Assembly: GCA_947591785.1 (NCBI GenBank)
Contig: CANQDK010000004.1
Span: forward strand, 12,137-76,136
DNA from: an uncultured Clostridia bacterium
GTDB taxonomy: Bacteria; Bacillota; Clostridia; Christensenellales; UBA1242
Reading direction: 5' to 3'
Length of the DNA: 64,000 nucleotides
In this document: piece by piece, positions 848 to 14,973 of the stretch
How the letters are laid out: every line of letters starts with the position of its first letter
Numbering within the stretch: position 1 is the first letter of the stretch
Translations under genes and position numbers: made by a program
The notes under the pieces: model-generated
Database searches by the model: none
The model's input: the letters and a program-made list of their open reading frames with translations, nothing else
What the model was told of the DNA's origin: nothing

Positions 848-2836
848 ATGAACATGAAAGATAGCGAAAAAATTAATAAAAAACCACAAGATGAAATGCA
901 AAGGATGAAACAACTTGTTGAAGAAATTTTGATGCATAACAAAAACTATTATGAATTGGACAATCCGACAATTTCTGATAAAGAATGGGATAAATTGTAT
1001 GACGAACTGCTCTCTTTGGAAAAGAAAACAGGGATTGTTTTGCCAAATTCTCCATCACAGCGTGTTGGTGGAGATATGCTTGATAAATTTGTAAAGAAAA
1101 AACATGAAATAAGACTTTATTCCTTGAACAAGGTGAGAACTTTTGCTGATTTGGGAAGCTTTTTTGATGACATGGAAAAAGCTGTCAAAAATCCAACTTT
1201 TGCGGTGGAATATAAATTTGATGGTTTGACAATCGTGACGGAATATATTGATGGAAAGTTTGTTTCGGCAACCACGCGAGGCAATGGCGAAGTTGGTGAA
1301 GATGTCACAGAGCAAGTCCGAACAATCCACAGTGTTCCACTTGAAATTCCTTTCAAACATCATCTTATTGTTCAAGGCGAAGGAATGATGACAAATAAGG
1401 CTTTCAAGCAATACAACAAAACTGCAAGCGAACCACTCAAAAATCCAAGAAATGGTGTTGCTGGAGCAATAAGGAATCTTAACCCAAAAGAAACTGCACG
1501 CAGAAAATTGGATTATTTTTGTTATGGAATCCTTCTTTGCGATGGCAAAAAGTTTACATCGCAGGCTCAAATGCACGACTTTTTGGTGGAAAATGGTTTT
1601 AAAACAGGTGATTTTTTTGAAATTGTGAAAACGCGAGAGGAAGCGGAAAATTTGATTCGTAAGATTGATAAAGTCAAAAACAGTCTTGATGTTATGATTG
1701 ATGGAATGGTTGTCAAACTCAATCAAGTTACTCCTCGAGAAGAAATTGGTTACACAAACAAGTTTCCAAAATGGGCAATGGCATTTAAGTTTGAGGCGGA
1801 AGAAGTTTCAACAATGCTGAATGATGTTGTGTGGCAAGTTGGAAAATCAGGAAAAGTGACTCCTATTGCTGTTCTTGAACCTGTCGAACTTGCTGGTGCA
1901 ACAATCAAAAGAGCAACGCTAAATAATATTGAAGACATAAAGAAAAAGAATGTTTTTTTGAAAAGTAGGGTTTTTATAAGGCGTTCTAATGAGGTTATTC
2001 CTGAAGTGCTTGGGCTTGCTGAAAAATACGATTATTCAAAGGAAATTTTAGAACCAAAAACATGCCCATGTTGTAGGCACAAACTTGTGAAAAAAGGGCC
2101 ACTTCTTTTCTGCACAAATTTCTTTGGTTGTAAAGAGCAGGTTGTTGCACGACTTGTAAACTTTGTCAGCCGTGAAGCCTTCAATATTGAAGGTTTGAGT
2201 GAAATGACATTGAATCAATTTTATGATGATTTGAACCTAAGACATTTTTCTGATATTTTCAAGTTGAAAAAAGAACAACTTATGGGGCTTGAAAAATTTG
2301 CGGACAAAAAAGCAAAGAATTTGCTTGATAGCATTGAAAAAGCAAAAAATATTGAATTTTCTCGCTTTATAAATGCGTTGGGAATAAGCGAAGTTGGGGT
2401 TAAAACTGCTCGTGACTTGGCAAAACATTTTAAGACTCTTGAAAATTTGCGAAAAGCAAAATTTGAAGAAGTTGACGAAATTGGTGATATTGGTGAAGTT
2501 ATTGCACATAATGTCGTTGATTTTTTTGCTGATAAAAACAACCAAAAGGAAATTGACAGCCTGCTTGAAGTTGGTGTTAAGATTGAAGAGGAGATGGGGG
2601 CAAAAACAAGCAAACTTGCTGGGCTGACATTTGTCTTGACAGGAACTTTGCCAAACTATTCAAGAAGTGATATGAGCAAACTTATTGAAGAAAATGGCGG
2701 AAAAACTGCGTCTAGTGTTTCAAAAAACACCTCTTATGTTCTTGCTGGCGAGGAAGCAGGAAGCAAACTTCAAAAAGCGAAAGAACTTGGAATCAAAATT
2801 ATTGACGAAAACGAAATTTTGAAAATGATGAAGTGA
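848..2836 (+). CDS. ligA: NAD-dependent DNA ligase LigA
   Basis: Adenylation motif EYKFDGLT, Cys4 zinc finger (CPCC...C..FFGC), HhH repeats and a C-terminal BRCT domain (LTFVLTGTL). GGAGG at 837-841 lies 6 nt before ATG 848, which I prefer over the TTG at 818. Confidence 0.95.
   Translation: MNMKDSEKINKKPQDEMQRMKQLVEEILMHNKNYYELDNPTISDKEWDKLYDELLSLEKKTGIVLPNSPSQRVGGDMLDKFVKKKHEIRLYSLNKVRTFADLGSFFDDMEKAVKNPTFAVEYKFDGLTIVTEYIDGKFVSATTRGNGEVGEDVTEQVRTIHSVPLEIPFKHHLIVQGEGMMTNKAFKQYNKTASEPLKNPRNGVAGAIRNLNPKETARRKLDYFCYGILLCDGKKFTSQAQMHDFLVENGFKTGDFFEIVKTREEAENLIRKIDKVKNSLDVMIDGMVVKLNQVTPREEIGYTNKFPKWAMAFKFEAEEVSTMLNDVVWQVGKSGKVTPIAVLEPVELAGATIKRATLNNIEDIKKKNVFLKSRVFIRRSNEVIPEVLGLAEKYDYSKEILEPKTCPCCRHKLVKKGPLLFCTNFFGCKEQVVARLVNFVSREAFNIEGLSEMTLNQFYDDLNLRHFSDIFKLKKEQLMGLEKFADKKAKNLLDSIEKAKNIEFSRFINALGISEVGVKTARDLAKHFKTLENLRKAKFEEVDEIGDIGEVIAHNVVDFFADKNNQKEIDSLLEVGVKIEEEMGAKTSKLAGLTFVLTGTLPNYSRSDMSKLIEENGGKTASSVSKNTSYVLAGEEAGSKLQKAKELGIKIIDENEILKMMK
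2690..2836. repeat. Direct repeat copy 1 (functional ligA 3' end), partner at 4966-5115
   Basis: Colinear with 4966-5115. A 36-nt block is exact (2742-2777 = 5019-5054). Confidence 0.85.
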
Positions 2837-2971
2837 ACGCGTGTGCAATTTTGCACTCAATGTTGTTTTGTGGCGTTATTTGTGAAATTTTGTGTAAATT
2901 TTTGTTTGTGGTTGCAAGCAAAAGATTTTGCGTACGGCTGTGATTTTTTTGACTGAAATCAAAAAAGGGGG

Positions 2972-2999
2972 TTGACAAATTCTTCTTCTATGATAAAAT
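2972..2999 (+). promoter_or_regulatory. Sigma-A-type promoter for sigma-like ORF A
   Basis: TTGACA at 2972-2977, a 16-nt spacer, and TGaTAAAAT (extended -10) ending at 2999. Confidence 0.55.
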
Positions 3000-3034
3000 A
3001 TTGATGTATTATGTATATATGAAACATCAGTAGA

Positions 3035-3050
3035 TGTGATAACTATCACA
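3035..3050. promoter_or_regulatory. Perfect TGTGA-N6-TCACA inverted repeat in the ORF A 5' UTR
   Basis: The sequence is TGTGATAACTATCACA. The 7-nt arms are exactly complementary. Confidence 0.4.
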
Positions 3051-3090
3051 AGAACATAGCACAAAAATTGCAAGCACAAAGGAAAAGCAG

Positions 3091-4992
3091 ATGGAAGAGG
3101 AAAAGAAACCAAAAAAGAAGATTGACGAAGAAACCCTGAATGGACTTAAAGAGAGTTATGGTGCTCTTCCAAAGGCTCTTGATGCCGAAAAAAATCGAGA
3201 ATTGCTTGAAAAATATAAAGAAACAGGTGACATTGAAATCCGAAATCAAATTGCGTGCGGCAATCTAAGGTTTGCTGTAAAATATGCATATAAATACTTT
3301 CAAAACGTGGTGTTTAAATGTTATAAAGATCAAGTTGGCGATTTGATACATGACCTCACAATAAGCCTTTTCAAAACGATTGAAAAGTTTGATACTTCAA
3401 AAGAATATACCTTTTTGACTTTTGCCAGCAGTGTTATTCGCAACGATTTGTTGATGAAATTCAGAAAAACAAAATTATTGAAAAACAAAGCAGTGATTGT
3501 TTCTTTTTCTTCGCCAACGCACTCTTATAAAGGTGGCGATGAAATTAGATATGAAGATGTGCTTACTGACGAGAAATTCACAGAAGAAAATTTTGTCACC
3601 AGTGCTGATTTGAAATACATTTTGGAAAAAATCGTTCCGACTCTGCCTGAAAGAGATAGAATACTTTTTACAGAATTTTTTATTGAAGGAAAGTCACGGT
3701 CGGAATGTGCAAAAAGTATCGGTTTAGCAAATGGTTCAATGCCTAAGGCTATCACAGAACTTCGTAAAAAAATTGTTCTCGCCTATGAAAATGGCATTGC
3801 AGGCAAGGAAGGCAGCAAGGGTAAAGCCACCCAAACTTATTCGCAAGGGGCGTCCTCGTTTGAAGAAATGTTGACGCAGCAAGCCAAGCGAGATCAAAAC
3901 ATTTTGAGGGATTATTTTGCAGGCAAACTTACATTGAAGGAAGTTGCAGCAAAATACAATATATCAATAGGGAATGTGAATTATATTGTCAGAGAATTTA
4001 AGTATGATTGTGAACTGCGAAATGTTGAAGTTCCAAAAAGAATGAAACCACAATCAAATTGGGCACGACAACAAGAGCAGCGTGCCCTCAGCAAACAAAA
4101 AACGCAGCAGAGAAACGAAGCTGTTGTGAAGGACTATGTAAATGGACTGCTGATGAGAGAAATTGCTGAAAAACATTCACTGACAGTCGGGAATGTGGGC
4201 TATATTGTTTCAAAGTGGAAGGCAGAACAGAAAAATGAAGGCAAAGAAGCACTTCTGACATCGAAAGTAACACTTGGGAAGAAAGAGCGAAACAAAAATA
4301 TTTTTGCGGACTATATGGCAGGTGAAATGACAACAGATGAGATTGCTGAGAAATATTCCATTTCAAAGGCACTTGTCAGGTATGTTGTCGCAAAGACAAA
4401 GGCTGAACTTACCCAGCGTGGCGAGAATGTTCCACGAAAAAAACGCGTTCAAAAGCTGAAAAATCCGGTTGTTTTGAAGCAGGCCAACCAAATTGAAGCC
4501 GCGATTTCTCTTGACGATGTTCTTGCACTGCTCACGGACAAAAGGAGAAAAATTTTTGAGAGTTATCAAAATGCTGATGGCACAGTGAAAGATGTCGCCA
4601 AAGGGCTTGGAATTTCGCAAGCTTATGTTCTCGATGTTGTCACAGAAGTGAAGAGAAAATGCAAAGAAAAAGGCATTGAAATGCCAAAAATGTCAAGACA
4701 AATTGTCAAAATCGCGGTGCTTAAAGGCTTTGAAGATGGAACTTTGACTTTTGAACAGGTTGACAAGTTTATGGGCAAACTGACTGAAAGTCAGAGACAG
4801 GCACTTTATGATTGGAAAGAGCAAAAAACACAAGAAAGAAAGCAGGAGCAATGTGCGAAAAAAACATCAGAGCCAGACCCTGAAAAAGATGTGACAGATT
4901 CTGACAGGAAAATCAACAAAGCCAAACAAAATGGTGACAAAGATGGGAAAACCGCCGAAAGTGATGAAAATGGTGGAAAAAACTGCGTCTAA
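3091..4992 (+). CDS. Sigma-70-like protein (regions 2 and 4) with a C-terminal array of four HTH-like repeats
   Basis: Region 2-like DLIHDLTISLFKTIEKFDTSKEYTFLTFASSVIRNDL and region 4-like LPERDRILFTEFFIEGKSRSECAKSIGL. Four units follow of the type (D/S)Y-x3-4-(T/L)-x2-E(I/V)A-x-K(Y/H)-x-(I/L)S-x-G/A-x-V-x-Y(I/V)V. The stop codon lies inside the ligA-tail remnant. Confidence 0.8.
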   Translation: MEEEKKPKKKIDEETLNGLKESYGALPKALDAEKNRELLEKYKETGDIEIRNQIACGNLRFAVKYAYKYFQNVVFKCYKDQVGDLIHDLTISLFKTIEKFDTSKEYTFLTFASSVIRNDLLMKFRKTKLLKNKAVIVSFSSPTHSYKGGDEIRYEDVLTDEKFTEENFVTSADLKYILEKIVPTLPERDRILFTEFFIEGKSRSECAKSIGLANGSMPKAITELRKKIVLAYENGIAGKEGSKGKATQTYSQGASSFEEMLTQQAKRDQNILRDYFAGKLTLKEVAAKYNISIGNVNYIVREFKYDCELRNVEVPKRMKPQSNWARQQEQRALSKQKTQQRNEAVVKDYVNGLLMREIAEKHSLTVGNVGYIVSKWKAEQKNEGKEALLTSKVTLGKKERNKNIFADYMAGEMTTDEIAEKYSISKALVRYVVAKTKAELTQRGENVPRKKRVQKLKNPVVLKQANQIEAAISLDDVLALLTDKRRKIFESYQNADGTVKDVAKGLGISQAYVLDVVTEVKRKCKEKGIEMPKMSRQIVKIAVLKGFEDGTLTFEQVDKFMGKLTESQRQALYDWKEQKTQERKQEQCAKKTSEPDPEKDVTDSDRKINKAKQNGDKDGKTAESDENGGKNCV

Positions 4993-5115
4993 TGTTTCAA
5001 AAAATATCTCTAATGTTTTTGCTGGCGAGGAAGCAGGAAGCAAACTTCAAAAAGTGAAAAAAACTTGGCATCAAAATCATTGACGAAAACGAATTTATTG
5101 AAAATGTTAAAATGA
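4966..5115 (+). pseudogene. Decayed duplicate of the ligA 3' end (BRCT tail)
   Basis: Aligns colinearly with 2690-2836. It has two single-A insertions (A6 at 4977-4982 versus A5; A7 at 5057-5063 versus AAAGAA) and many nonsynonymous changes. Confidence 0.85.
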
Positions 5116-5188
5116 TTTTTATGGTTGTTTGTAATGTTATAACCAATAAAAAATTTTTATTTTCTGTCCATAAATTTGAAATTTGATA

Positions 5189-5217
5189 TTGACAAATCCA
5201 ATTATGGTTGTTAGAAT
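5189..5217 (+). promoter_or_regulatory. Sigma-A-type promoter for sigma-like ORF B
   Basis: TTGACA at 5189-5194, a 17-nt spacer, TAGAAT at 5212-5217. A 10-bp inverted repeat (5193-5202 / 5222-5231) brackets it. Confidence 0.6.
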
Positions 5218-5240
5218 AAGGATTGGATTTGTGAGGTATT

Positions 5241-7508
5241 ATGGAAAATTCTGACGAAAAAGTTGGGCTTGATCTTATTTATTGGAATAAGAATTGTAAT
5301 ACAATTCATCTTAATAAAGAAGAAAGATTGGCTCTTTTAAGAGAATACAGAAAGTATGGTGAACCAGCAGTGCGTGAAAAATTGATATACGGTTCTATTG
5401 GGCTTGTTCTTGCTTTTGTTTCACACAATTATGAAGAATTTGGTAGAAAACTAGACAGAATCAATCCAGATTTTGAGGATATTTTTCAAACGGGTTTGGA
5501 AGTTTTATGTGGTGCCGTTGATAGTTTTGATCCTGATGCTTATAATTTTGAATTTTCAACTTATCTTTATCACAGAATTGATTGGAAACTTCGCAGAGAT
5601 GTTTTTCATCATAAAAGCATAATTCCTTTTGTTTCTACTGATGATAAAATAGACGATGATGGGAGATTTTTAGGAGAAATTTTACCAGATTCTAATTTTG
5701 ATATTGAACAATTAATTCAATCTATGGATATGAGTTATCTTAAAGAGAAAGTCATTCCTTTTCTCTCTTCGCAAGAAAAACGCATATTTGAATATTATTT
5801 CTTTGATGAACTTCCATATTCTGAAATTGGGAAAATTTTTGGATTTTCACAAGAAAGAGTTCGTCAACAACTTGACAGTGCAATAAAAAAAGTTACAAAA
5901 ATTTTTCAAGAAGGGCCAACTGAAATAGATAAAATAACTAGGGGCGTTCAGTTAAGGAAATCTGCCATTGAAAGAATTGAAAAAAATCAAAAGCTTTTTG
6001 AAAAATATGGGAGAGCTTTCCTTAAACAACATTTTAGGCCTCTTTTGACTCCAACACAAAAAGATGTTTTTGATAGTTTCTTTTTAAATTATCGTGGGCA
6101 AGAAGTTGCTAGGATGCTTTCCACAGTAAAAGATATTGAGAAAAAACTTGATAAGAAAGGCCCAGAACTTTTAAAGAAAAAAGAAAATGGCGAATTAGCC
6201 GTGAAGAAACCAACTCTAAGGCAACAACAATGTAAAAACAGGATAGAACGCTTGTTGAACCAGTATGGTGGGAGATTGTTCCTGCAAAAGTATTTTGTTC
6301 CTACTCTTGAACCAACCACAAAAAAAGTCTTTGAAAAAGGACTTTTAGAATACGATTTTGATTCTCTTAAGGAAATGGCGAAGCAAACGGGATTGTCACC
6401 AACAAAGTTTAAAGATATTTTGATGGAAAGTGTTGAGCAACTTAAAAATACTGATTTTGAAACTATAGTGAGAGTTGTTGATTTTAAAAATAGTTTTTGG
6501 GGAACAAGAAATATTGATGAAAAGATTGATACTGAACTTATAAGACAAAAATTTGAACTTGTGAAAAAATTTGGTGGAGAAATTGTCCTAAGAAAATATT
6601 TCTGTCCTATGCTCTCAGAAGATGAAAAGAAGGTTTTTGATTGTTTATATTTAAGACAAAATTTCACTTCTTACGAAAATGCTTCAAAAATTCTTGGTAA
6701 AACTGTTGGAGAAATTATTAGCACAGAAAAAGTGGTTTTAAGCAAACTTGAAAACACCAATTTGGAAGAACTTAAAGAAATTGAGAAAAAAGCCAATTTG
6801 TATATTAGTAAAGCATTTTCAACAAGCACTTCGCATGACAAAAATAAAATGAGAAGAAAAATTATATGCAATTATGGTGGAATCCAATTTTTGAGAGAGA
6901 GGTTTATTCCAACAATCTATGCAAAAATTGATAAAGAAATTTTTGAAAAATACATACTTCATGGAGTTCTATCAGATGAATTGAAACATCTTTTCAACAA
7001 TGGATTTGCAAAAAGAACTAATAAAGATGGATATGTTAAAGAGATAAGTGTTTCAGGAAAGATTGGATTCAGAATTAAAAATTATATATTGCCACAACTT
7101 GAAAAGTTTAAAGCCAGTTTTGAAAATTTCGAGCAAACTGTGAAAGAATTCTATATGAAAAAAGGGTTTGAAACAGTTCACTCGGAAGATTTTGAAAAAT
7201 TGACATTTGATGAAATTGCTGAAAAGACTGATGAGAAAAACAAAAAACAGTTTGAAATATTCTCTCCAGAACTTATCCAAAGAGCAGGCGGGGAGAAAGA
7301 AGTGCTTAGAAACTTCAGGCCAACATTGAATTCTGTCACGAAGCAGTTGATTTTATTTAAATCCCTTACAGAAAAAATTAGCGACATTCAAATTGCAAAG
7401 GAACTTGGGCTTACTTCTGATGAATTTAATGAATCAAAGGAAGAAATTGCAGATAAACTTCAAAATTATGTAGAGAAAAAAGAAAAGAAAGAAGGAAAAA
7501 GCAAATAA
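5241..7508 (+). CDS. Sigma-70-like protein with five C-terminal region-4-like repeat modules
   Basis: Region 2-like FEDIFQTGLEVLCGAVDSFDP..FEFSTYLYHRI and region 4-like LSSQEKRIFEYYFFDELPYSEIGKIFGFSQERVRQQL. Five modules follow with the motif (Y/F/A)GG-x3-(F/V)L-x-(K/E/N)-x-F-x-P-x-L-x4-K-x-(V/I)F. Confidence 0.8.
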   Translation: MENSDEKVGLDLIYWNKNCNTIHLNKEERLALLREYRKYGEPAVREKLIYGSIGLVLAFVSHNYEEFGRKLDRINPDFEDIFQTGLEVLCGAVDSFDPDAYNFEFSTYLYHRIDWKLRRDVFHHKSIIPFVSTDDKIDDDGRFLGEILPDSNFDIEQLIQSMDMSYLKEKVIPFLSSQEKRIFEYYFFDELPYSEIGKIFGFSQERVRQQLDSAIKKVTKIFQEGPTEIDKITRGVQLRKSAIERIEKNQKLFEKYGRAFLKQHFRPLLTPTQKDVFDSFFLNYRGQEVARMLSTVKDIEKKLDKKGPELLKKKENGELAVKKPTLRQQQCKNRIERLLNQYGGRLFLQKYFVPTLEPTTKKVFEKGLLEYDFDSLKEMAKQTGLSPTKFKDILMESVEQLKNTDFETIVRVVDFKNSFWGTRNIDEKIDTELIRQKFELVKKFGGEIVLRKYFCPMLSEDEKKVFDCLYLRQNFTSYENASKILGKTVGEIISTEKVVLSKLENTNLEELKEIEKKANLYISKAFSTSTSHDKNKMRRKIICNYGGIQFLRERFIPTIYAKIDKEIFEKYILHGVLSDELKHLFNNGFAKRTNKDGYVKEISVSGKIGFRIKNYILPQLEKFKASFENFEQTVKEFYMKKGFETVHSEDFEKLTFDEIAEKTDEKNKKQFEIFSPELIQRAGGEKEVLRNFRPTLNSVTKQLILFKSLTEKISDIQIAKELGLTSDEFNESKEEIADKLQNYVEKKEKKEGKSK

Positions 7509-7586
7509 AAGTCCAAAATTAATTCAAAATTTCCAATTTAAATTGTAATTTTAAAATTTGTAAAAGTTTTAATAAAGGGACTGGTT

Positions 7587-8402
7587 ATGTCGAGAGGATC
7601 AACAAATGAAAAATATATGTACCTTATTGGAGAATTCCCAGAAGGACTGACAAATCAAGAAAATTCTGAATTGCTTGCTCAATACAAGGTGACAGGCGAC
7701 AGGAAATTGCGTGATAAAATTATCTATGGGAATTTGAGGCTTGCAATTTCTTATTCATGGCAAAAGTTTAATGGACAAATTTATTATCAATATATTAGGA
7801 AAAACGAATATGAAGATTTAATTCAAGATTTGTCGATGATAATCTTAAATGCTGTGGAAAATTTTGATGCATCAAAAAGTTTTGCATTTTCCACTTTTCT
7901 TTGCTCTTGCATTCACAATGATTTTGTAAGAAGAATTAAAAAATCTTCTTGTCTTAAAAATAGTGCAAAGGTTATTTCTTTCTCATCTGTTTTATTTAAA
8001 GATGATAAAGGAAAAGATATAACTCTTGAGCAAGTCATTAAAGATGAAAAGCACACCGAAGATAAGATTCTTGCTTCCGCAGATGTGAAAATTATAATGG
8101 GGAAAATTCTTCCTTTCTTGCCAGAAAGACAACAACTTGTTTTTAAAAAATATTTTATCGAAGGAAAAAAACAAAATGAAATTGCACAAGAAATTGGAGT
8201 TAGTCAAGAGCAAATCAGTCGTGATTTAAGAAAATCAAAAGAGATTGTTGAGTTTATTTACAATAATGGCATAAGGGCTTATGAAATTGCTCAATCGCAA
8301 CCAAAACAAAAAAATATGGAAAAAGATACACAAAAAACTGAAAAAAATAAGCATAGCACTTCAAAAAAAGAAGTCAGCAGAACAAAATGTGCAACAAAAT
8401 GA
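7587..8402 (+). CDS. Sigma-70-like protein, short paralogue of ORF A
   Basis: DLIQDLSMIILNAVENFDASKSFAFSTFLCSCIHNDF and LPERQQLVFKKYFIEGKKQNEIAQEIGVSQEQISRDL. It is colinear with the N-terminal 240 aa of ORF A and has a Lys-rich tail. Confidence 0.8.
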   Translation: MSRGSTNEKYMYLIGEFPEGLTNQENSELLAQYKVTGDRKLRDKIIYGNLRLAISYSWQKFNGQIYYQYIRKNEYEDLIQDLSMIILNAVENFDASKSFAFSTFLCSCIHNDFVRRIKKSSCLKNSAKVISFSSVLFKDDKGKDITLEQVIKDEKHTEDKILASADVKIIMGKILPFLPERQQLVFKKYFIEGKKQNEIAQEIGVSQEQISRDLRKSKEIVEFIYNNGIRAYEIAQSQPKQKNMEKDTQKTEKNKHSTSKKEVSRTKCATK

Positions 8403-8709
8403 GTATTTTTGTTCGATTAGTCTTTTGATAAATTTTTTCGTAGATATTTTGTTTTATAATAATTTAAAATTCCTATCAAATAAAAATATTTGAGTTTTTA
8501 AATGTCGAATTTTCATTTCAAAGTTTTACTTAAATTTTATTTCAAAGTCTATTTCAAATTTTTATGTTCCCTTTCTCTCTATGTTTCCTATGGAATTTTT
8601 TATAAATACCATTTATATGATTAATCTTTGTATTTGCTTTTTATCTATATTTGGTTTTTATTAAAAATTAATATTTAATTAAAAATAATAAGAAAAAGAC
8701 AAAAAATGC

Positions 8710-8738
8710 TTGACAAGAGAAAACAATATGTGTATAAT
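8710..8738 (+). promoter_or_regulatory. Consensus sigma-A promoter
   Basis: TTGACA at 8710-8715, an exact 17-nt spacer, TATAAT at 8733-8738. Confidence 0.7.
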
Positions 8739-8744
8739 ACACTT

Positions 8745-8926
8745 TGTGTTTCGTTGTCGGAAACAGTGCTTAGGTTAAGTAAGCATAAACAAACAACAGG
8801 TGGCGGAAATCCGTTTCACCGATTGGAAAATTCATTTCCAAGAACCATTATGGTTTTGTGTTGTTCGTGTTTCAAATTGTTTAAGCATTTTTTATGGCAC
8901 GAAATCGTTTCGTGCCATTTTTTTTA
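8745..8926 (+). ncRNA. Unclassified structured RNA (independent sRNA or terminator-containing leader of the str operon)
   Basis: Bounded by the consensus promoter and an 11-bp-stem terminator. Internal hairpins lie at 8747-8765, 8799-8820, 8823-8841 and 8843-8855. There is no SD or credible ORF. Confidence 0.45.
8894..8926 (+). terminator. Rho-independent terminator
   Basis: ATGGCACGAAA-tcg-TTTCGTGCCAT followed by a T-run. Confidence 0.8.
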
Positions 8927-9019
8927 GATAGCTTTTGCTCTCAAACAAAAAATTGACAAATCTTTGTTCAAGATTTAAAAATGGAACAAATCGCCATTTG
9001 GCTTAAAAGGAGAAAAAGA

Positions 9020-10234: not shown

Positions 10235-12307
10235 ATGGCTACAAATCTAGAACTTACCAGAAATGTCGGGATTATGGCTCATATTGATGCTGGAAAAACA
10301 ACAACAACTGAACGTATTTTGTTTTATACAGGAAAAAACCATAAGATTGGCGAGGTTCATGATGGCGAAGCAACAATGGACTGGATGGCTCAGGAACAAG
10401 AACGTGGAATCACAATCACTTCTGCTTGCACAACTTGCCATTGGAAAGGCCACAAAATCAACATTATTGACACTCCAGGACACGTTGACTTCACTGTTGA
10501 AGTTGAACGTTCTTTGAAAGTGCTTGATGGTGCGGTTTTGGTGCTTTCTGCTCGTGATAAGGTTCAACCACAAACAGAAACTGTTTGGCGTCAATCAACA
10601 AAATACAAAGTTCCAACAATTATCTATGTCAACAAGATGGACCGTGATGCTGCTGACTTTTTTGGTTGCGTTGATTCAATCCGTGAAAGATTGAAAACAA
10701 ATCCGCTTGCAATTCAAATGCCTATCGGTGAGGCAGAAACATTCAGCGGAATTATTGACCTCATGACAATGAAAGCAGAAATTTATAAAGACGATATTGG
10801 AACTCAAATTGAAATTACTGATATTCCTGAACAATACAAAGCAAAAGCACAAGCTCTTCATGACGAAATGGTTGAAAAAATCGTTGAAACAGATGATGCT
10901 ATGCTTGAGAAGTTCTTTGAAGGCGAAGAAATTTCTATTGACGAATTAAAGAAAACTCTTCGTAAAGCAACAATCTCTCGTGAGATAGTCCCTGTTCTTT
11001 GTGGTTCTTCTTATAAAAACAAGGGTGTTCAAATGCTTCTTGATGCTATGGTTGAATTTTTGCCAAGTCCTCTTGACATTGACCATATTGAAGGAATTAA
11101 CCCAGAAACAGAACAAACTGAAACACGTGCTCCAAGTGAAGATGCACCTTTCGCAGGACTTGCGTTCAAAATTATGACAGACCCATTTGTTGGAAGACTT
11201 GCATTCTTCCGTGTATATTCTGGAAAATTGACTGCAGGCTCTTATGTTTACAACTCAAACAAGGGTGAAAAAGAGCGTGTTGGGCGTCTTATTCGTATGC
11301 ATGCAAATCAAAGAGAAGAAATTAAAGAAGTTGGTGCAGGGGATATTGCCGCAATCGTTGGACTTAAAGACACAATCACAGGTGAAACTCTTTGTGATGA
11401 GAAATATCCTATCGTGCTTGAAAGTATGGATTTCCCAGAACCTGTTATTCGTGTTGCAATTGAACCAAAAACAAAACTTATGCAAGAAAAAATGGTGCTT
11501 GCATTGATTAAACTTGCAGAAGAAGACCCAACTTTCAAAACCTACACAGACCAAGAAACTGGGCAAACAATTATTGCTGGAATGGGCGAACTTCACCTTG
11601 AAATTATTGTTGACAGACTTCTTCGTGAATTTAAAGTTGAAGCAAATGTTGGACAACCACAAGTTGCTTACAAAGAAACAATCCGCAAATCAACTCGTGC
11701 CGAAGGTAAATTTATTCGTCAAAGTGGTGGTAAAGGACAATACGGACATTGTATTATTGAAATGGAACCACTTGCTCCAGGATCTGGATATCAATTTGAA
11801 GATAAGACTGTTGGTGGTTCTATTCCTAAGGAATACATTCAACCAATCAACAACGGAATTCAAGAAGCAAGCAAAACTGGTGTTGTTGCTGGTTACGAAA
11901 CAGTTGACTTTAAAGTTACTGTCGTTGATGGTTCTTTCCACGAAGTTGACTCTTCTGAAATGGCATTTAAGATTGCTGGCTCAATGGCATTCAAAGATGG
12001 TGCTGCAAAAGCAAATCCTGTTCTTCTTGAACCTATTATGAAAGTTCAAGTTGAAGTCCCAGATGACTATCTTGGAACTGTAATGGGCAATCTTACATCT
12101 CGTCGTGGAATTTTGACAGGAAACGAAACTCGTCCAGGCGTTCAAGTTGTCAATGCAGAAGTTCCACTTGGAGAAATGTTTGGATATGCAACCGACCTTC
12201 GTTCTCAAACACAGGGGCGTGGCACTTTCACAATGGAATTCTTGAAATATAATGAAGTTCCAAGAAATATTGCTGAAAATATTGTTGGTGCAAGAAAGAA
12301 AGCTTAA
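10235..12307 (+). CDS. fusA: Elongation factor G
   Basis: [28 protein letters not shown], and full-length EF-G colinearity. Confidence 0.98.
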
Positions 12308-12478
12308 AAGACTGTAAAATTTAGCATTTTATTTCATAAAATTTTTGTTAATTGAAATTAAAAATATAATTTTTATAAATTTTGCAATTATTTTTTGAAA
12401 ATGTGTAAAATTATTTTGTTTTTTCAAAAAACTATGATAAAATATGAAAAGTAATTATTATTAAAGGAGATTTTTAAA

Positions 12479-13681
12479 ATGGCTACAGGAAAATATGATA
12501 ACACAAAACAGCATGTTAACGTTGGAACTATCGGCCACGTTGACCATGGTAAAACAACCCTTACAGCAGCAATCACAATGACACAAGCTGCAAAGGGATA
12601 TGCTCAACAAATGAGATATGATGAAATCGATAAAGCACCAGAAGAAAAGGCTCGTGGAATCACAATCAACACTGCTCACGTTGAATATCAAACAGATAAA
12701 CGTCACTATGCACACGTTGACTGCCCAGGACACGCTGACTATGTTAAAAACATGATTACAGGTGCGGCTCAAATGGATGGTGCAATCCTTGTTGTTGCTG
12801 CAACTGATGGCCCAATGCCTCAAACAAGAGAACATATCTTGCTTGCAAGACAAGTTGGTGTTCCATATATCGTTGTTTTCATGAATAAAACTGACCAAGT
12901 TGATGACCCAGAACTTCTTGACCTTGTTGAAATGGAAATTCGTGACCTTTTGACAGAATATGGATTCCCTGGAGATAAAACTCCAATCATTAAGGGTTCT
13001 GCTTTAAAAGCTTTGGAAGCTGCTCAAGCTGGAAAGGTTGATGATCCTGCTTGTGCTTGCATTAACGAACTTATGGATGCTCTTGACTCATACATCCCAG
13101 ACCCAGTTCGTGACACAGATAAACCATTCCTTATGCCTGTTGAAGATGTTTTCACAATCACAGGACGTGGAACTGTTGCAACAGGAAGAATTGAAAGAGG
13201 AAAAGTTAAGATTAACGATACTGTTGAAATCGTTGGTATGGGTTCTAAGAAACAAAGCGTTGTAACAGGCGTTGAAATGTTTAGAAAAACTGTTGACGAA
13301 GGTATCGCAGGATACAATGTCGGCATTCTTCTTCGTGGTATTCAAAGAAATGAAATCGAAAGAGGACAAGTTCTTTGCAAACCAGGTTCAATTCACCCAC
13401 ACACAAAATTTGCAGCTGAAGTTTACGTTTTGAAGAAAGAAGAAGGCGGACGTCATACACCATTCTTCAATGGATATCGTCCACAATTCTATTTCCGTAC
13501 AACTGACGTTACAGGAACAATTGAACTTCCACAAGGCGTTGAAATGGTTATGCCAGGCGACAATGTTAAGATGACAATCGAACTTTCAAAAGAAATCGCT
13601 ATTGAACAAGGACTTCGTTTTGCTATCCGTGAAGGTGGCAGAACAGTTGGTTCTGGTGTTGTTTCTCAAATCATTGAATAA
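12479..13681 (+). CDS. tuf: Elongation factor Tu
   Basis: [32 protein letters not shown] upstream. The last 13 codons are repeated at 14974-15012. Confidence 0.98.
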
Positions 13682-13712
13682 TAAAAAACGGCTATAATGC
13701 CCTAAAATAAAG

Positions 13713-13738
13713 GTGATCACAGATGTGGTCACTTTTTT
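13713..13738 (+). terminator. Rho-independent terminator directly after tuf (inside the islet)
   Basis: GTGATCAC-agat-GTGGTCAC (8 bp with one G-U pair) followed by T6. Confidence 0.7.
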
Positions 13739-13750
13739 GTTGTGGTCAAC

Positions 13751-13792
13751 TTTTTGGCCATTTTGGGCAATTTTGACCGCATTTTGACCACA
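13751..13792. repeat. Four tandem 10-11-bp repeats TTTTGRCCRCA
   Basis: The units are ttttggcca, ttttgggcaa, ttttgaccgca, ttttgaccaca. Inverted copies TGTGGTCA lie at 13724-13732 and 13741-13749. Confidence 0.7.
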
Positions 13793-13912
13793 CGAAATTT
13801 TTGTTGTAGTCAAAAATTGCCTTATTTTTGGGTAAAATAGGGGATTTTTGCCTATGATTTAGCAGTTTTCCATGGGTTTGATCACGCTTAACTAGAAAAA
13901 TTGAAATATACT

Positions 13913-13940
13913 TTGATATTACAAGGATTTGTGATATAAT
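13913..13940 (+). promoter_or_regulatory. Promoter placing the TSS on or next to the ATG of the cargo gene (possible leaderless mRNA)
   Basis: TTGATA at 13913-13918, a 16-nt spacer, TGaTATAAT with -10 at 13935-13940. ATG 13947 is 7 nt downstream and has no SD. Confidence 0.5.
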
Positions 13941-13946
13941 ATTCAC

Positions 13947-14786
13947 ATGGAAAAAATGAATACCAATATAGCAATGTTTATTCGTTGTGAAGATCGTCCA
14001 ACTAATGAAATAATATCAAATGAAGAAAGTTTGAAGTTGGCTGTTCAAGCTGGATTTAAAAAAATATTTATGTCTTTTAAGGCGAATCATCTGTTTGAAG
14101 GACAATATAGAAAATTTTATGATCTGGCTAAATCTTATGGTTTAGAAGTAGTATTTGTACATTTAGGATATCAAGTTAATGAAGGAATTGCAACCATTTG
14201 GGAAGAAGGACTCGCTGGAGATCAACTTGTTGCGGATTACAAAAGGGATTTGGAAATTGTTGCAAAAGATGGAATTAAAATGGTGTGTATGCACGTAACA
14301 AAAAGTAGTAAACAATCGCCTATGTCTAAAATCGGCCTTAAACGTTGGGAAGAGATAGTAAAGCACGCAGAGAAATTAGGAGTAATAGTGGCTCTTGAAA
14401 ACACTGTATGGCCTGGTTATATAGAATTTATTTTAGACAACATTCAAAGTCCAAATTTGCAAGTTTGTTTTGATAGCGGACACAATCATGTGTATTTTAA
14501 AGATGGTTTTGATTTTAAAAGGTTTAAAAATAAAATAGCATGTATTCATTTACATGATAACGACCAATCAAAAGATTTACATTTACTTCCTTTTGACGGC
14601 ACAATTGATTGGAAGTTCTTAGCTGAAAATTTGCGAGAGGCAAATTACAAAGGGGTAATAGCTTGTGAGTCTGGATACAAACGAGGCTATGTGAATGAAC
14701 TCACTCCACTAGAATTCTTTACAGAGGCGTATAGACGATTAGAAAAAATTGATGATATGGTTAATTTGCCCACACAAGCAAAATGA
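13947..14786 (+). CDS. Sugar phosphate isomerase/epimerase (xylose isomerase-like TIM barrel / AP endonuclease 2 fold)
   Basis: 279-aa ORF with family-typical strands: VFVHL, CMHV, VALEN, CFDSGHNH, IHLHDN. An alternative start exists at 13956. Confidence 0.75.
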   Translation: MEKMNTNIAMFIRCEDRPTNEIISNEESLKLAVQAGFKKIFMSFKANHLFEGQYRKFYDLAKSYGLEVVFVHLGYQVNEGIATIWEEGLAGDQLVADYKRDLEIVAKDGIKMVCMHVTKSSKQSPMSKIGLKRWEEIVKHAEKLGVIVALENTVWPGYIEFILDNIQSPNLQVCFDSGHNHVYFKDGFDFKRFKNKIACIHLHDNDQSKDLHLLPFDGTIDWKFLAENLREANYKGVIACESGYKRGYVNELTPLEFFTEAYRRLEKIDDMVNLPTQAK

Positions 14787-14813
14787 CGACCCCATTTTGG
14801 TCAAATGATTGAA

Positions 14814-14835
14814 TTTTGACCACATTTTGACCACA
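14814..14835. repeat. Two exact tandem TTTTGACCACA units
   Basis: 14814-14824 and 14825-14835 are identical to 13782-13792. An inverted GGTCAAA copy lies at 14799-14805. Confidence 0.8.
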
Positions 14836-14973
14836 TTACGTAAAATACGTTAGATATTTGTAGGAGACTCTAAGTATCAAAAAAATATTTTTACACCGAG
14901 AACGGCTTTATTTTAAAGAGGGCTAGACGTCTGTAGGTTATTCCTAGCGACGCCTAGATATTAATATCCCTAA

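Follow-up and report, generated by a model that had tools for sequence, protein, structure and literature searches.

Prophages and islands in tRNA or tmRNA genes, and SCCmec in rlmH/orfX, integrate into a gene's 3' end and reconstitute the gene. Campbell-type integration of circular DNA by a single crossover duplicates the shared segment as direct repeats around the insert. In homology-facilitated illegitimate recombination (HFIR), seen in natural transformation of S. pneumoniae, Acinetobacter baylyi and Pseudomonas stutzeri, one side of the exchange falls within or beside a region of homology, and the joint on the other uses a few bases in common (summarised in PMC3240628). In C-terminal displacement arrays, known from Rhs/CDI toxins and from T6SS effector-immunity clusters, successive events give rise to tandem arrays (Kirchberger et al. 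2017, PMC5361080, with the Rhs literature it cites).

The window analysed here is a stretch of 64,000 nucleotides from an uncultured Clostridia bacterium, in which we found the gene order pcrA, ligA, ORF A, a dead ligA fragment, ORF B, ORF C, rpsL. The second ligA tail is probably the scar of one additive recombination event, in which an extra sigma gene was stacked before older ones. The features of the locus are as follows.

848..2836, + strand: ligA, NAD-dependent DNA ligase, intact, 662 aa (NF005932 match; Pfam adenylation, OB, HHH_2 and BRCT)
2686..2836, + strand: copy 1, the working last ~49 ligA codons and stop, second half of BRCT (MAFFT, repeat search, blastn)
2837..3090, + strand: leader of the ORF A module, intergenic, with a promoter-like site and RBS (promoter scan)
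3091..4992, + strand: ORF A, sigma-70 family by domain content (Pfam, NCBIfam, repeat HMM)
4962..5115, + strand: copy 2, the dead ligA 3' fragment (MAFFT, repeat search, blastn)
5116..5240, + strand: ORF B leader, with a promoter-like site (alignment, promoter scan)
5241..7508, + strand: ORF B, sigma-70 family by domain content (Pfam, NCBIfam)
7587..8402, + strand: ORF C, sigma-70 family by domain content, of ordinary length (Pfam, NCBIfam)
8710..9019, + strand: rpsL promoter and conserved structured leader (promoter scan, homology to the closest relative, covariation)

The ligA reading frame at 848-2836, which has identical coordinates in the ENA gene call, matches the NF005932 LigA model end to end with 735 bits, and its BRCT domain is in place at residues 587-660. 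The preliminary description was therefore right to take copy 1 for the authentic ligA end. It had also reported that the ligA 3' end is present twice, and MAFFT, a repeat search and blastn agree that 2686-2836 recurs colinearly at 4962-5115 with ~88-90% identity. The blastn alignment of the two copies has 88.3% identity over 154 columns (E = 6e-47). The repeat search pairs 2701-2785 with 4978-5062 (92%) and 2780-2825 with 5058-5103 (85%), at a spacing of 2277/2278. The exact 36-nt block noted earlier (2742-2777 = 5019-5054) was verified and has a mismatch on each side. In the MAFFT alignment the similarity ceases exactly at the ligA stop codon, which is still recognisable in copy 2 at 5111-5113. 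Copy 2 had been credited with two +1 insertions, but it has three, at 4977-4982, 5057-5063 and ~5097, and because of these it measures 150 nt against 147 nt for copy 1.

Besides these insertions, 15 substitutions separate the two copies. Twelve substitutions fall on the copy 2 branch, three synonymous and nine non-synonymous; eight are GC-to-AT, four are A/T swaps and none is AT-to-GC. The copy 1 branch has taken 2-3 changes since the duplication, all synonymous. Copy 2 is a pseudogenised partial ligA duplicate, with similarity far above chance and coding constraint lost; the frameshifts and the nine non-synonymous changes bear out its earlier description as a decayed copy. Judged from these substitutions, the decay is neutral or near-neutral and AT-biased. 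Both copies share 14 states, spread over 2701-2824, against the closest relative (L057), and both therefore derive from the ligA of their own lineage. The duplicated ligA piece is thus native, and only the module of promoter and ORF A appears imported.

ORF A encodes sigma2 and sigma4 domains followed by four extra sigma4-like HTH repeats (Pfam, NCBIfam, repeat HMM), and ORF B has about five sigma4-like repeats of ~95 aa. Pfam Sigma70_r2 and Sigma70_r4 lie in canonical order in ORFs A, B and C, all of which match sigma factors in the PDB and exceed the TIGR02937 cutoff of 42.9 bits (125.6, 97.4 and 78.2 bits, respectively), and by this domain content we assign all three to the sigma-70 family. 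The sigma core of ORF A shares 20% identity with that of ORF B, whose repeats are of another type, and 38% with ORF C. Elsewhere, related genes also occur in tandem arrays, beside another ribosomal operon. ORF A, with sigma and HTH domains only, is the sole gene in 2837-4965. ORF and domain searches found no integrase or recombinase between the repeats, and beyond the generic sigma core no relatives turned up in phages or plasmids. The non-coding leader at 2837-3090 is ~80-87% identical to the sequence directly after the ligA stop in L057 and carries a promoter-like site at 2972-2999 (TTGACA-16-TAAAAT with TG; 11/12 match in the promoter scan). The ORF B leader, which directly adjoins copy 2, has one at 5189-5217 (TTGACA-17-TAGAAT with TG). 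As noted in the preliminary description, ORF A continues into copy 2, where it is read in the frame of ligA (...SDENGGK) up to a stop made by a frameshift: its final nine codons and stop codon fall inside copy 2, and the stop is the TAA at 4990-4992, which follows an A5-to-A6 expansion at 4977-4982.

The GC3 of ORF A (0.341) is the highest among the 49 ORFs of the window (mean 0.239, sd 0.037); ORF B and ORF C, at 0.216 and 0.217, fall in the typical range. Compared with L057, pS reaches 0.30 (0.26-0.35) in ORF A, 0.66 (0.60-0.72) in ligA, 0.59 (0.50-0.68) in pcrA and 0.48 in fusA; at fourfold sites the divergence amounts to 0.25 in ORF A and 0.51 in ligA. The pS of ORF A is about half that of ligA and pcrA, which makes ORF A the more recent arrival, although such low synonymous divergence could in principle stem from constraint instead of recent transfer. 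The dN/dS of ORF A against its L057 ortholog (~0.35) shows that ORF A works as a gene. A foreign origin of ORF A had previously been argued from G+C counts of single 60-nt lines. The counts of 29 and 28 in ORF A were correct, but the line at 5581-5640 in ORF B has 19, not 18. Three hand-picked lines set against ORF B are invalid as an argument alone; the GC3 comparison over 49 ORFs agrees with their direction, and together with the pS values it upholds the foreign origin.

Both ligA and rpsL are conserved in 21 relatives, across which the gap between them ranges from 0.4 to 3.5 kb. Full-length ORF B-type genes (25-32% aa identity) lie in this gap in five relatives (L002, L011, L017, L018 and L068), and an ORF A-type gene was found only in L057, the closest of the 21 compared. 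The order in L057 is ligA, ORF A, rpsL, without ORF B; its sequence aligns colinearly with the window from pcrA as far as 4914 and from 8746 onwards, with 4915-8745 missing. The L057 ortholog of ORF A has a longer native tail, whose GATGGCGGAAAC and AACGGCGGGAAAGG are similar to AATGGCGGAAAAAC of ligA at the joint; over the last ~25 nt the tails cannot be aligned. The microhomology reading given below leans on the L057 tail, poorly conserved over those last ~25 nt, as a proxy for the tail that the ancestral ORF A had. No ligA remnant was found downstream of ligA in the loci of 75 other species, nor was a genome found in which the sequence from 5116 onwards follows ligA directly, the closest in the databases searched being L057 with 89% LigA identity. 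On the right, the rpsL promoter at 8710-8738 (12/12 match in the promoter scan) precedes a leader with a terminator-like hairpin at 8894-8918 and a covarying structure across 14 relatives, and homology to L057 resumes at 8746. On its right side, the variable region has its fixed limit in this promoter and leader. In this uncultured gut Clostridia group, the site between the ligA stop and the rpsL promoter is variable and often accommodates fast-evolving sigma-factor-like genes.

From this pattern we infer in what order the events occurred, which way the transfer went and by what molecular mechanism, as follows. ORF B would be the older occupant of the site, and the lineage would have started from ligA, ORF B (and ORF C), rpsL. 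A 2.1-kb module of promoter and ORF A, sharing with the L057 lineage a common ancestry more recent than that of the surrounding genes, would have been joined in. Its left end would have been placed at the ligA stop codon, and its right end, within the Gly/Lys/Asp-rich ORF A tail, would have been fused to ligA codon ~614 (…EENGGK), with a short similar stretch (AATGGCGGAAA-like) as the probable guide. Because the right joint would lie 147 nt upstream of the left joint, 147 nt of the lineage's own ligA would come to flank the module on either side. Of these two copies, the upstream one still completes the ligase and is under selection, and the downstream one is non-functional and has drifted under AT-biased mutation. 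ORF A would have lost its own tail and been read at first in frame into the ligase fragment, today's stop being the codon exposed by the first A-run slip. HFIR, unequal exchange between conspecific haplotypes and template switching are candidate mechanisms. A point against this account is that the left border of the young module lies within ~12 nt of the ligA stop, a position hard to get by ordinary homologous crossover. On our best reading the event was illegitimate, possibly guided by microhomology, and left a scar of an ordinary kind.

Considering that the source is a metagenome assembly with ~7-8x coverage and that Logan unitigs break within the 36-nt block, two co-occurring strains, ligA-ORF A and ligA-ORF B, could have been fused at their common ligA sequence. 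However, the duplication structure is found at 99.99-100% identity in four concordant SPAdes assemblies at ENA (ERZ27060145, ERZ27249446, ERZ27249440 and ERZ27249451), and one Logan unitig (L083, k = 31) covers 2748-5048 and runs through both joints. The ends of the unitigs lie exactly k-1 = 30 nt inside the exact block, as a true repeat predicts. The joint of the ORF A tail to copy 2 is not at a shared k-mer, and the 15 substitutions and three insertions of copy 2 also speak against a chimera, to which we assign a negligible probability. The agreement of the assemblies and the junction-crossing unitigs means that the structure is not a misassembly; the duplication is fixed. Each repeat copy is followed by a promoter and a same-strand sigma-family gene, as in a plain tandem segmental duplication of the ligA 3' end and a downstream sigma gene with ORF A and ORF B as diverged copies. 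This history is contradicted, since the sequence after copy 2 is not homologous to that after copy 1: alignment found no similarity between the leaders at 5116-5240 and 2837-3090. The ligA fragments are ~90% identical, yet the similarity stops at the stop codon and the two ORFs retain only 20% identity over the sigma core, with different repeat types; an unselected fragment cannot far exceed adjacent selected genes in conservation, which makes such a duplication hardly credible. A site-specific integrative element with ORF A as cargo, targeting the ligA 3' end and bringing a replacement gene end so that the tails are attL and attR, would account for direct repeats around a compositionally odd insert and for the intact target gene. 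We consider it very unlikely: the insert holds ORF A and no integrase or recombinase, the repeat is 147 nt long, 88-90% identical and frameshifted instead of a short exact core, and L057 has the same module without the repeat. Recurrent att use is also absent (a ligA remnant in 0 of the 75 other species), as are phage or plasmid relatives beyond the generic sigma core.

Synteny alone would allow ORF A to be the older occupant in the clade of the window and L057, since L057 lacks ORF B. With the polarity reversed, ORF A would have resided after ligA, and a segment of ligA 3' fragment, ORF B and ORF C would have arrived from a conspecific ligA-ORF B strain, anchored by homology on the rpsL/rpsG/fusA side, with an illegitimate joint inside the ORF A tail. 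This has a real, if minor, chance of being correct: it fits the colinearity with L057 on either side of the missing 4915-8745, the highly conserved rpsL-fusA flank would be a good anchor, and the boundary between copy 2 and the ORF B leader coincides precisely with the ligA stop. However, the GC3 outlier is ORF A, ORF B and ORF C being typical; measured against L057, ORF A is younger than the genes beside it; and ORF B-type genes occupy the site in the five more distant relatives. The own-lineage ligA states of copy 2 would make the donor conspecific, which merges this history with the addition of ORF A before ORF B that we prefer. We also consider it unlikely, though conceivable, that the interval from the ligA stop to the rpsL promoter is a dedicated exchange site, where a TTGACAAAT-type promoter with a giant sigma-like gene (4-7 extra sigma4-type repeats) is swapped between species and sometimes stacked. 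The ligA remnant would then be the first visible footprint of a directed, undescribed cassette exchange. This is suggested by the module border, which coincides exactly with the ligA stop in the window and in L057 alike, by a module younger than the flanks in both, and by the tandem arrays elsewhere.

Taken as an addition of ORF A, the scar is a clean, datable record of a regulatory gene added to a bacterial chromosome without mobile-element machinery, in which both joints, the native duplicated segment and its neutral decay are legible. It also draws attention to ligA-rpsL as a variable site where uncultured gut Clostridia encode sigma-like proteins of an unusual and rare class. Annotators should label 4962-5115 a ligA pseudogene fragment, discard the 50-aa ORF that some assemblies call in it, and regard the last nine ORF A codons as ligase-derived.

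Among the known systems, 3'-end integrative elements likewise leave the target gene intact and its 3' end repeated beyond the insert, but the ligA case lacks a recombinase and recurrent occupation, its repeat is long and imperfect, and its insert is one regulatory gene. Campbell-type integration has the same geometry and would explain why both copies are native, but would require a hypothetical 2.28-kb circle carrying 147 nt of ligA and the ORF A module. The locus resembles HFIR in the addition of foreign DNA beside a conserved gene, in the combination of insertion with local duplication or deletion, and in the absence of mobile-element genes; the imported DNA beside the conserved anchor is represented by ORF A, a GC3 outlier with a pS of 0.30 against 0.59-0.66 in the flanks. 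It differs in that the event is read from a scar instead of being observed, that the homologous anchor is unmappable here, copy 1 being native to ~12 nt before the stop, and that the change is a 147-nt duplication, whereas deletion is more usual in HFIR. Compared with displacement arrays, the constant gene is a housekeeping ligase outside the system, the cargo consists of sigma-70-family regulators instead of toxin or immunity genes, and there is a single displaced fragment at ligA, in one lineage only. The arrangement is nevertheless alike: a new module follows a constant upstream gene, and the old one, beginning with the ORF B leader, has been pushed downstream directly behind a fragment of that gene's 3' region, copy 2.

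The final ~150 nt of ligA are repeated 2.28 kb downstream, within the gene order pcrA, ligA, ORF A, ligA fragment, ORF B, ORF C, rpsL, rpsG, fusA. The elements concerned are as follows.

848-2836, ligA, encoding a complete LigA with its BRCT domain intact
2686-2836, copy 1, the functional ligA 3' end
2837-3090, non-coding leader of ORF A, including its promoter (2972-2999) and RBS
3091-4992 (+), ORF A
4962-5115, copy 2, the decayed ligA 3' fragment
5241-7508 (+), ORF B
7587-8402 (+), ORF C
8403-8705, spacer between ORF C and the rpsL promoter
8710-8738 (+), rpsL promoter, a 12/12 sigma-70 match
8710-9019 (+), stretch containing the rpsL leader of ~270 nt
8894-8918, terminator hairpin at the end of that leader, followed by a T-run

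The duplication of the ligA 3' end, reported in the preliminary description, was recovered by MAFFT, a repeat finder and blastn (154 columns, 88.3% identity, E = 6e-47). The repeat finder gave 92% identity for 2701-2785 versus 4978-5062 and 85% for 2780-2825 versus 5058-5103. The ligA stop codon marks the precise limit of similarity; the sequences from 2837 and from 5116 onward are unrelated in the MAFFT alignment. The exact 36-nt block described earlier (2742-2777 = 5019-5054) is present, with a mismatch at either edge. We rejected it as a functional core and gave it no special weight, since a 150-nt stretch with ~18 differences would be expected to contain a run of ~30 by chance. Copy 2 carries three single-base insertions, namely the two noted previously (A5-to-A6 at 4977-4982 and in the A-run at 5057-5063) and a third near 5097 that the earlier count of two had missed. 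ORF A enters copy 2 in the ligA frame (...SDENGGK) and, past the first A-run slip, stops there at TAA 4990-4992, as had been stated. Overall, the earlier finding was correct and its interpretation essentially right, with small factual corrections. No RNA element was found in the repeat or insert by an Rfam search of 2780-5300, even at E <= 1.

The A-run slip also made an in-frame A AAA AAC heptamer at 4977-4983, three codons upstream of the ORF A stop. A AAA AAC is a classic -1 slippery pattern, and the -1 frame runs for ~25 further codons, not in the ligA frame. A programmed -1 frameshift yielding a fusion protein was rejected because the shift would miss the ligA frame; the heptamer is probably meaningless. 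Some ENA assemblies (L081, L082, L089 and L091) annotate a 50-aa gene at 4931-5083. This ORF is the dead copy 2 read in the ligA frame and should be left out of gene annotation.

An assembly chimera is excluded. Four ENA assemblies contain the same arrangement (99.99-100% identity), and one Logan unitig (L083) corresponds to window 2748-5048 and spans both joints. The ends of Logan unitigs lie precisely 30 nt (k-1) into the 36-nt block, as a true repeat predicts. The joint between the ORF A tail and copy 2 coincides with no shared k-mer; therefore, a repeat-induced misjoin is impossible.

The origin of the two copies was examined by a three-way comparison with ligA of L057, the locus of the closest relative. 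At 14 sites over 2701-2824 the two copies agree and L057 differs, so the source of both was this lineage's own ligA and not an L057-like donor. On the copy 2 branch there are 12 substitutions and the 3 insertions; by hand count, 3 substitutions are synonymous and 9 non-synonymous, with 8 GC-to-AT, 4 A/T swaps and 0 AT-to-GC. All of the 2-3 changes on the copy 1 branch are synonymous. Judged from these counts, copy 2 is in neutral AT-biased decay and copy 1 is under purifying selection. Each branch dates the duplication to about 0.08-0.1 substitutions per neutral site, less than half of the window-L057 divergence of ORF A (dS 0.39) and far below that of ligA (dS saturated, at least 1.2).

The promoter and ORF A module is compositionally high for the window genome, which has 31.9% GC in the window and a mean GC3 of 0.239 (sd 0.037, 49 ORFs). 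ORF A has the highest GC3 of the 49 (0.341; ligA 0.297), and ORF B (0.216) and ORF C (0.217) are typical. L057 has 41% GC, and the GC3 of its ORF A ortholog (0.40) is unremarkable there. Synonymous divergence from L057 is lowest in ORF A.

Table. Synonymous differences (pS, Nei-Gojobori), window versus L057, with 95% intervals where given.
ORF A: 0.30 [0.26-0.35]
ligA: 0.66 [0.60-0.72]
pcrA: 0.59 [0.50-0.68]
fusA: 0.48
rpsG: 0.49
rpsL: 0.38

Fourfold-site differences are 0.51 for ligA and 0.25 for ORF A, and the leader is 80-87% identical to that of L057 from the first base past the stop. Therefore, the common ancestor of the module in the window and in L057 is more recent than that of the flanking core genes. 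The dN/dS of ORF A (~0.35 versus the L057 ortholog) indicates a working gene. Within ligA, pS is 0.42 at 2591-2833 versus 0.70 upstream. Co-transfer of this 3' end with ORF A was not accepted: pS falls equally low in other ligA windows (0.46-0.50), the 3' end keeps a native GC3 in each genome (0.30 vs 0.54), and copy 1 and copy 2 have the 14 native states in common.

The bacterium is one of the uncultured gut Clostridia near Candidatus Caccovivens. In 21 related species with rpsL after ligA, the gap between them ranges from 388 to 3487 nt and may be empty or hold a small Zn-ribbon protein, membrane proteins, or an ORF B-type gene (L002, L011, L017, L018 and L068; 25-32% aa identity, full length). 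An ORF A-type gene occurs only in L057 (LigA 89%). Colinearity between L057 and the window extends from pcrA to 4914; 4915-8745 has no L057 equivalent, and the match picks up again at 8746 in the rpsL promoter/leader. The ligA stop codon on one side and the rpsL promoter on the other therefore delimit the variable region. Within it, ORF B and ORF C seem to be native, and genes of their type are old at this site. No ligA remnant was found downstream of ligA in any of 75 other species. In a search for an empty site, two JGI metagenome scans, with the ORF B promoter 29-mer and with the exact 36-mer, gave 0 hits, and LigA had no match between 89% and 100% among 5.8 billion proteins. The zinc-ribbon-like protein (~120-170 aa; CPVC...CNNP.CP motifs) lies directly 3' of ligA in many relatives (L004 11989-12405; L007 4956-5330; L010 11965-12330; L011 11293-11667; L016 12067-12432; L055 12001-12510; L068 4249-4659) and is absent from the window. 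The spacer after ORF C is very AT-rich (17% GC), with no L057 counterpart.

ORF A, ORF B and ORF C all belong to the sigma-70 family (TIGR02937, Sigma70_r2, Sigma70_r4), with core identities (A/C 38%, B/C 27%, A/B 20%) that make them distant paralogs. ORF A carries four additional sigma4-like HTH repeats, and seven are present in its L057 ortholog (12180-14849); ORF B has about five tandem ~95-aa sigma4-like units of another type. Among 1.84 billion representative proteins, 80 relatives of the ORF A repeat region were found at E <= 1e-3 and 12 at <= 1e-10, some with up to 8 matched stretches. ORF B has one other homolog only (39%), in an unrelated context. A search for a vehicle matched only the generic sigma core (about 30%) in phage and plasmid collections, and generic sigma and HTH families in PHROGs. 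Tandem pairs of A/C-type genes also occur on other contigs (L086 5165-7855; L094 166-2019; L095), one of them located ~3 kb ahead of the S10 ribosomal operon. All of these genes are preceded by a promoter of their own, TTGACAAATTCTTC...TGATATAAT, like that of ORF A.

The rpsL leader is conserved in 14 relatives. Its predicted fold combines a long-range helix (AAACAAACAACAGGTGG ... CCACCGATT / GTGTTGTTCGTGTTT) with a pair of inner hairpins, and compensatory changes occur in 14/35 predicted pairs (alignment A4). Rfam gave no family at gathering score and nothing credible at E <= 1. The leader is a candidate ribosomal-protein (S12/S7) attenuator.

These observations probably reflect addition of the module beside older ORF B and ORF C. 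The left end of the module would lie at the ligA stop, and its right end would have been attached 147 nt 5' of that stop, thereby duplicating those 147 nt. The L057 ORF A has ~20 extra codons of Gly/Lys/Asp-rich tail, so the window ORF A would have been cut inside its tail. GATGGCGGAAAC and AACGGCGGGAAAGG in the L057 tail resemble ligA AATGGCGGAAAAAC at the joint, and the last ~25 nt of the tails are unalignable. It is plausible that microhomology guided the join in an unchanged codon phase (NGGK), the mapping being only suggestive, and this would explain the in-frame entry of ORF A into the ligA fragment. The route may have been homology-facilitated illegitimate recombination (PMC3240628), template switching, the entry of a circular molecule by a Campbell-type event, or unequal exchange in which A-type and B-type haplotypes of the same species took part. 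Tandem duplication is excluded because similarity ends at the ligA stop codon. An integrative element, likewise excluded, is contradicted by the lack of a recombinase, the long and imperfect repeat and the lack of recurrence. Composition, the divergence of ORF A and the distribution of ORF B-type genes weaken the case for the opposite polarity, in which ORF B and ORF C were the arrivals; with a conspecific partner, that scenario would be the same as addition of the module.

More unusual than the scar are its surroundings: a ligA-rpsL site of variable content, rare proteins with multiple sigma4 repeats, and the conserved structured leader of rpsL. The ligA scar itself is a well-preserved example of an event of a known kind. 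In Rhs, CDI and T6SS displacement arrays, an incoming module shoves the old one downstream together with a piece of the constant gene (PMC5361080), and the architecture of ligA, ORF A, ligA fragment and ORF B parallels that of these arrays.
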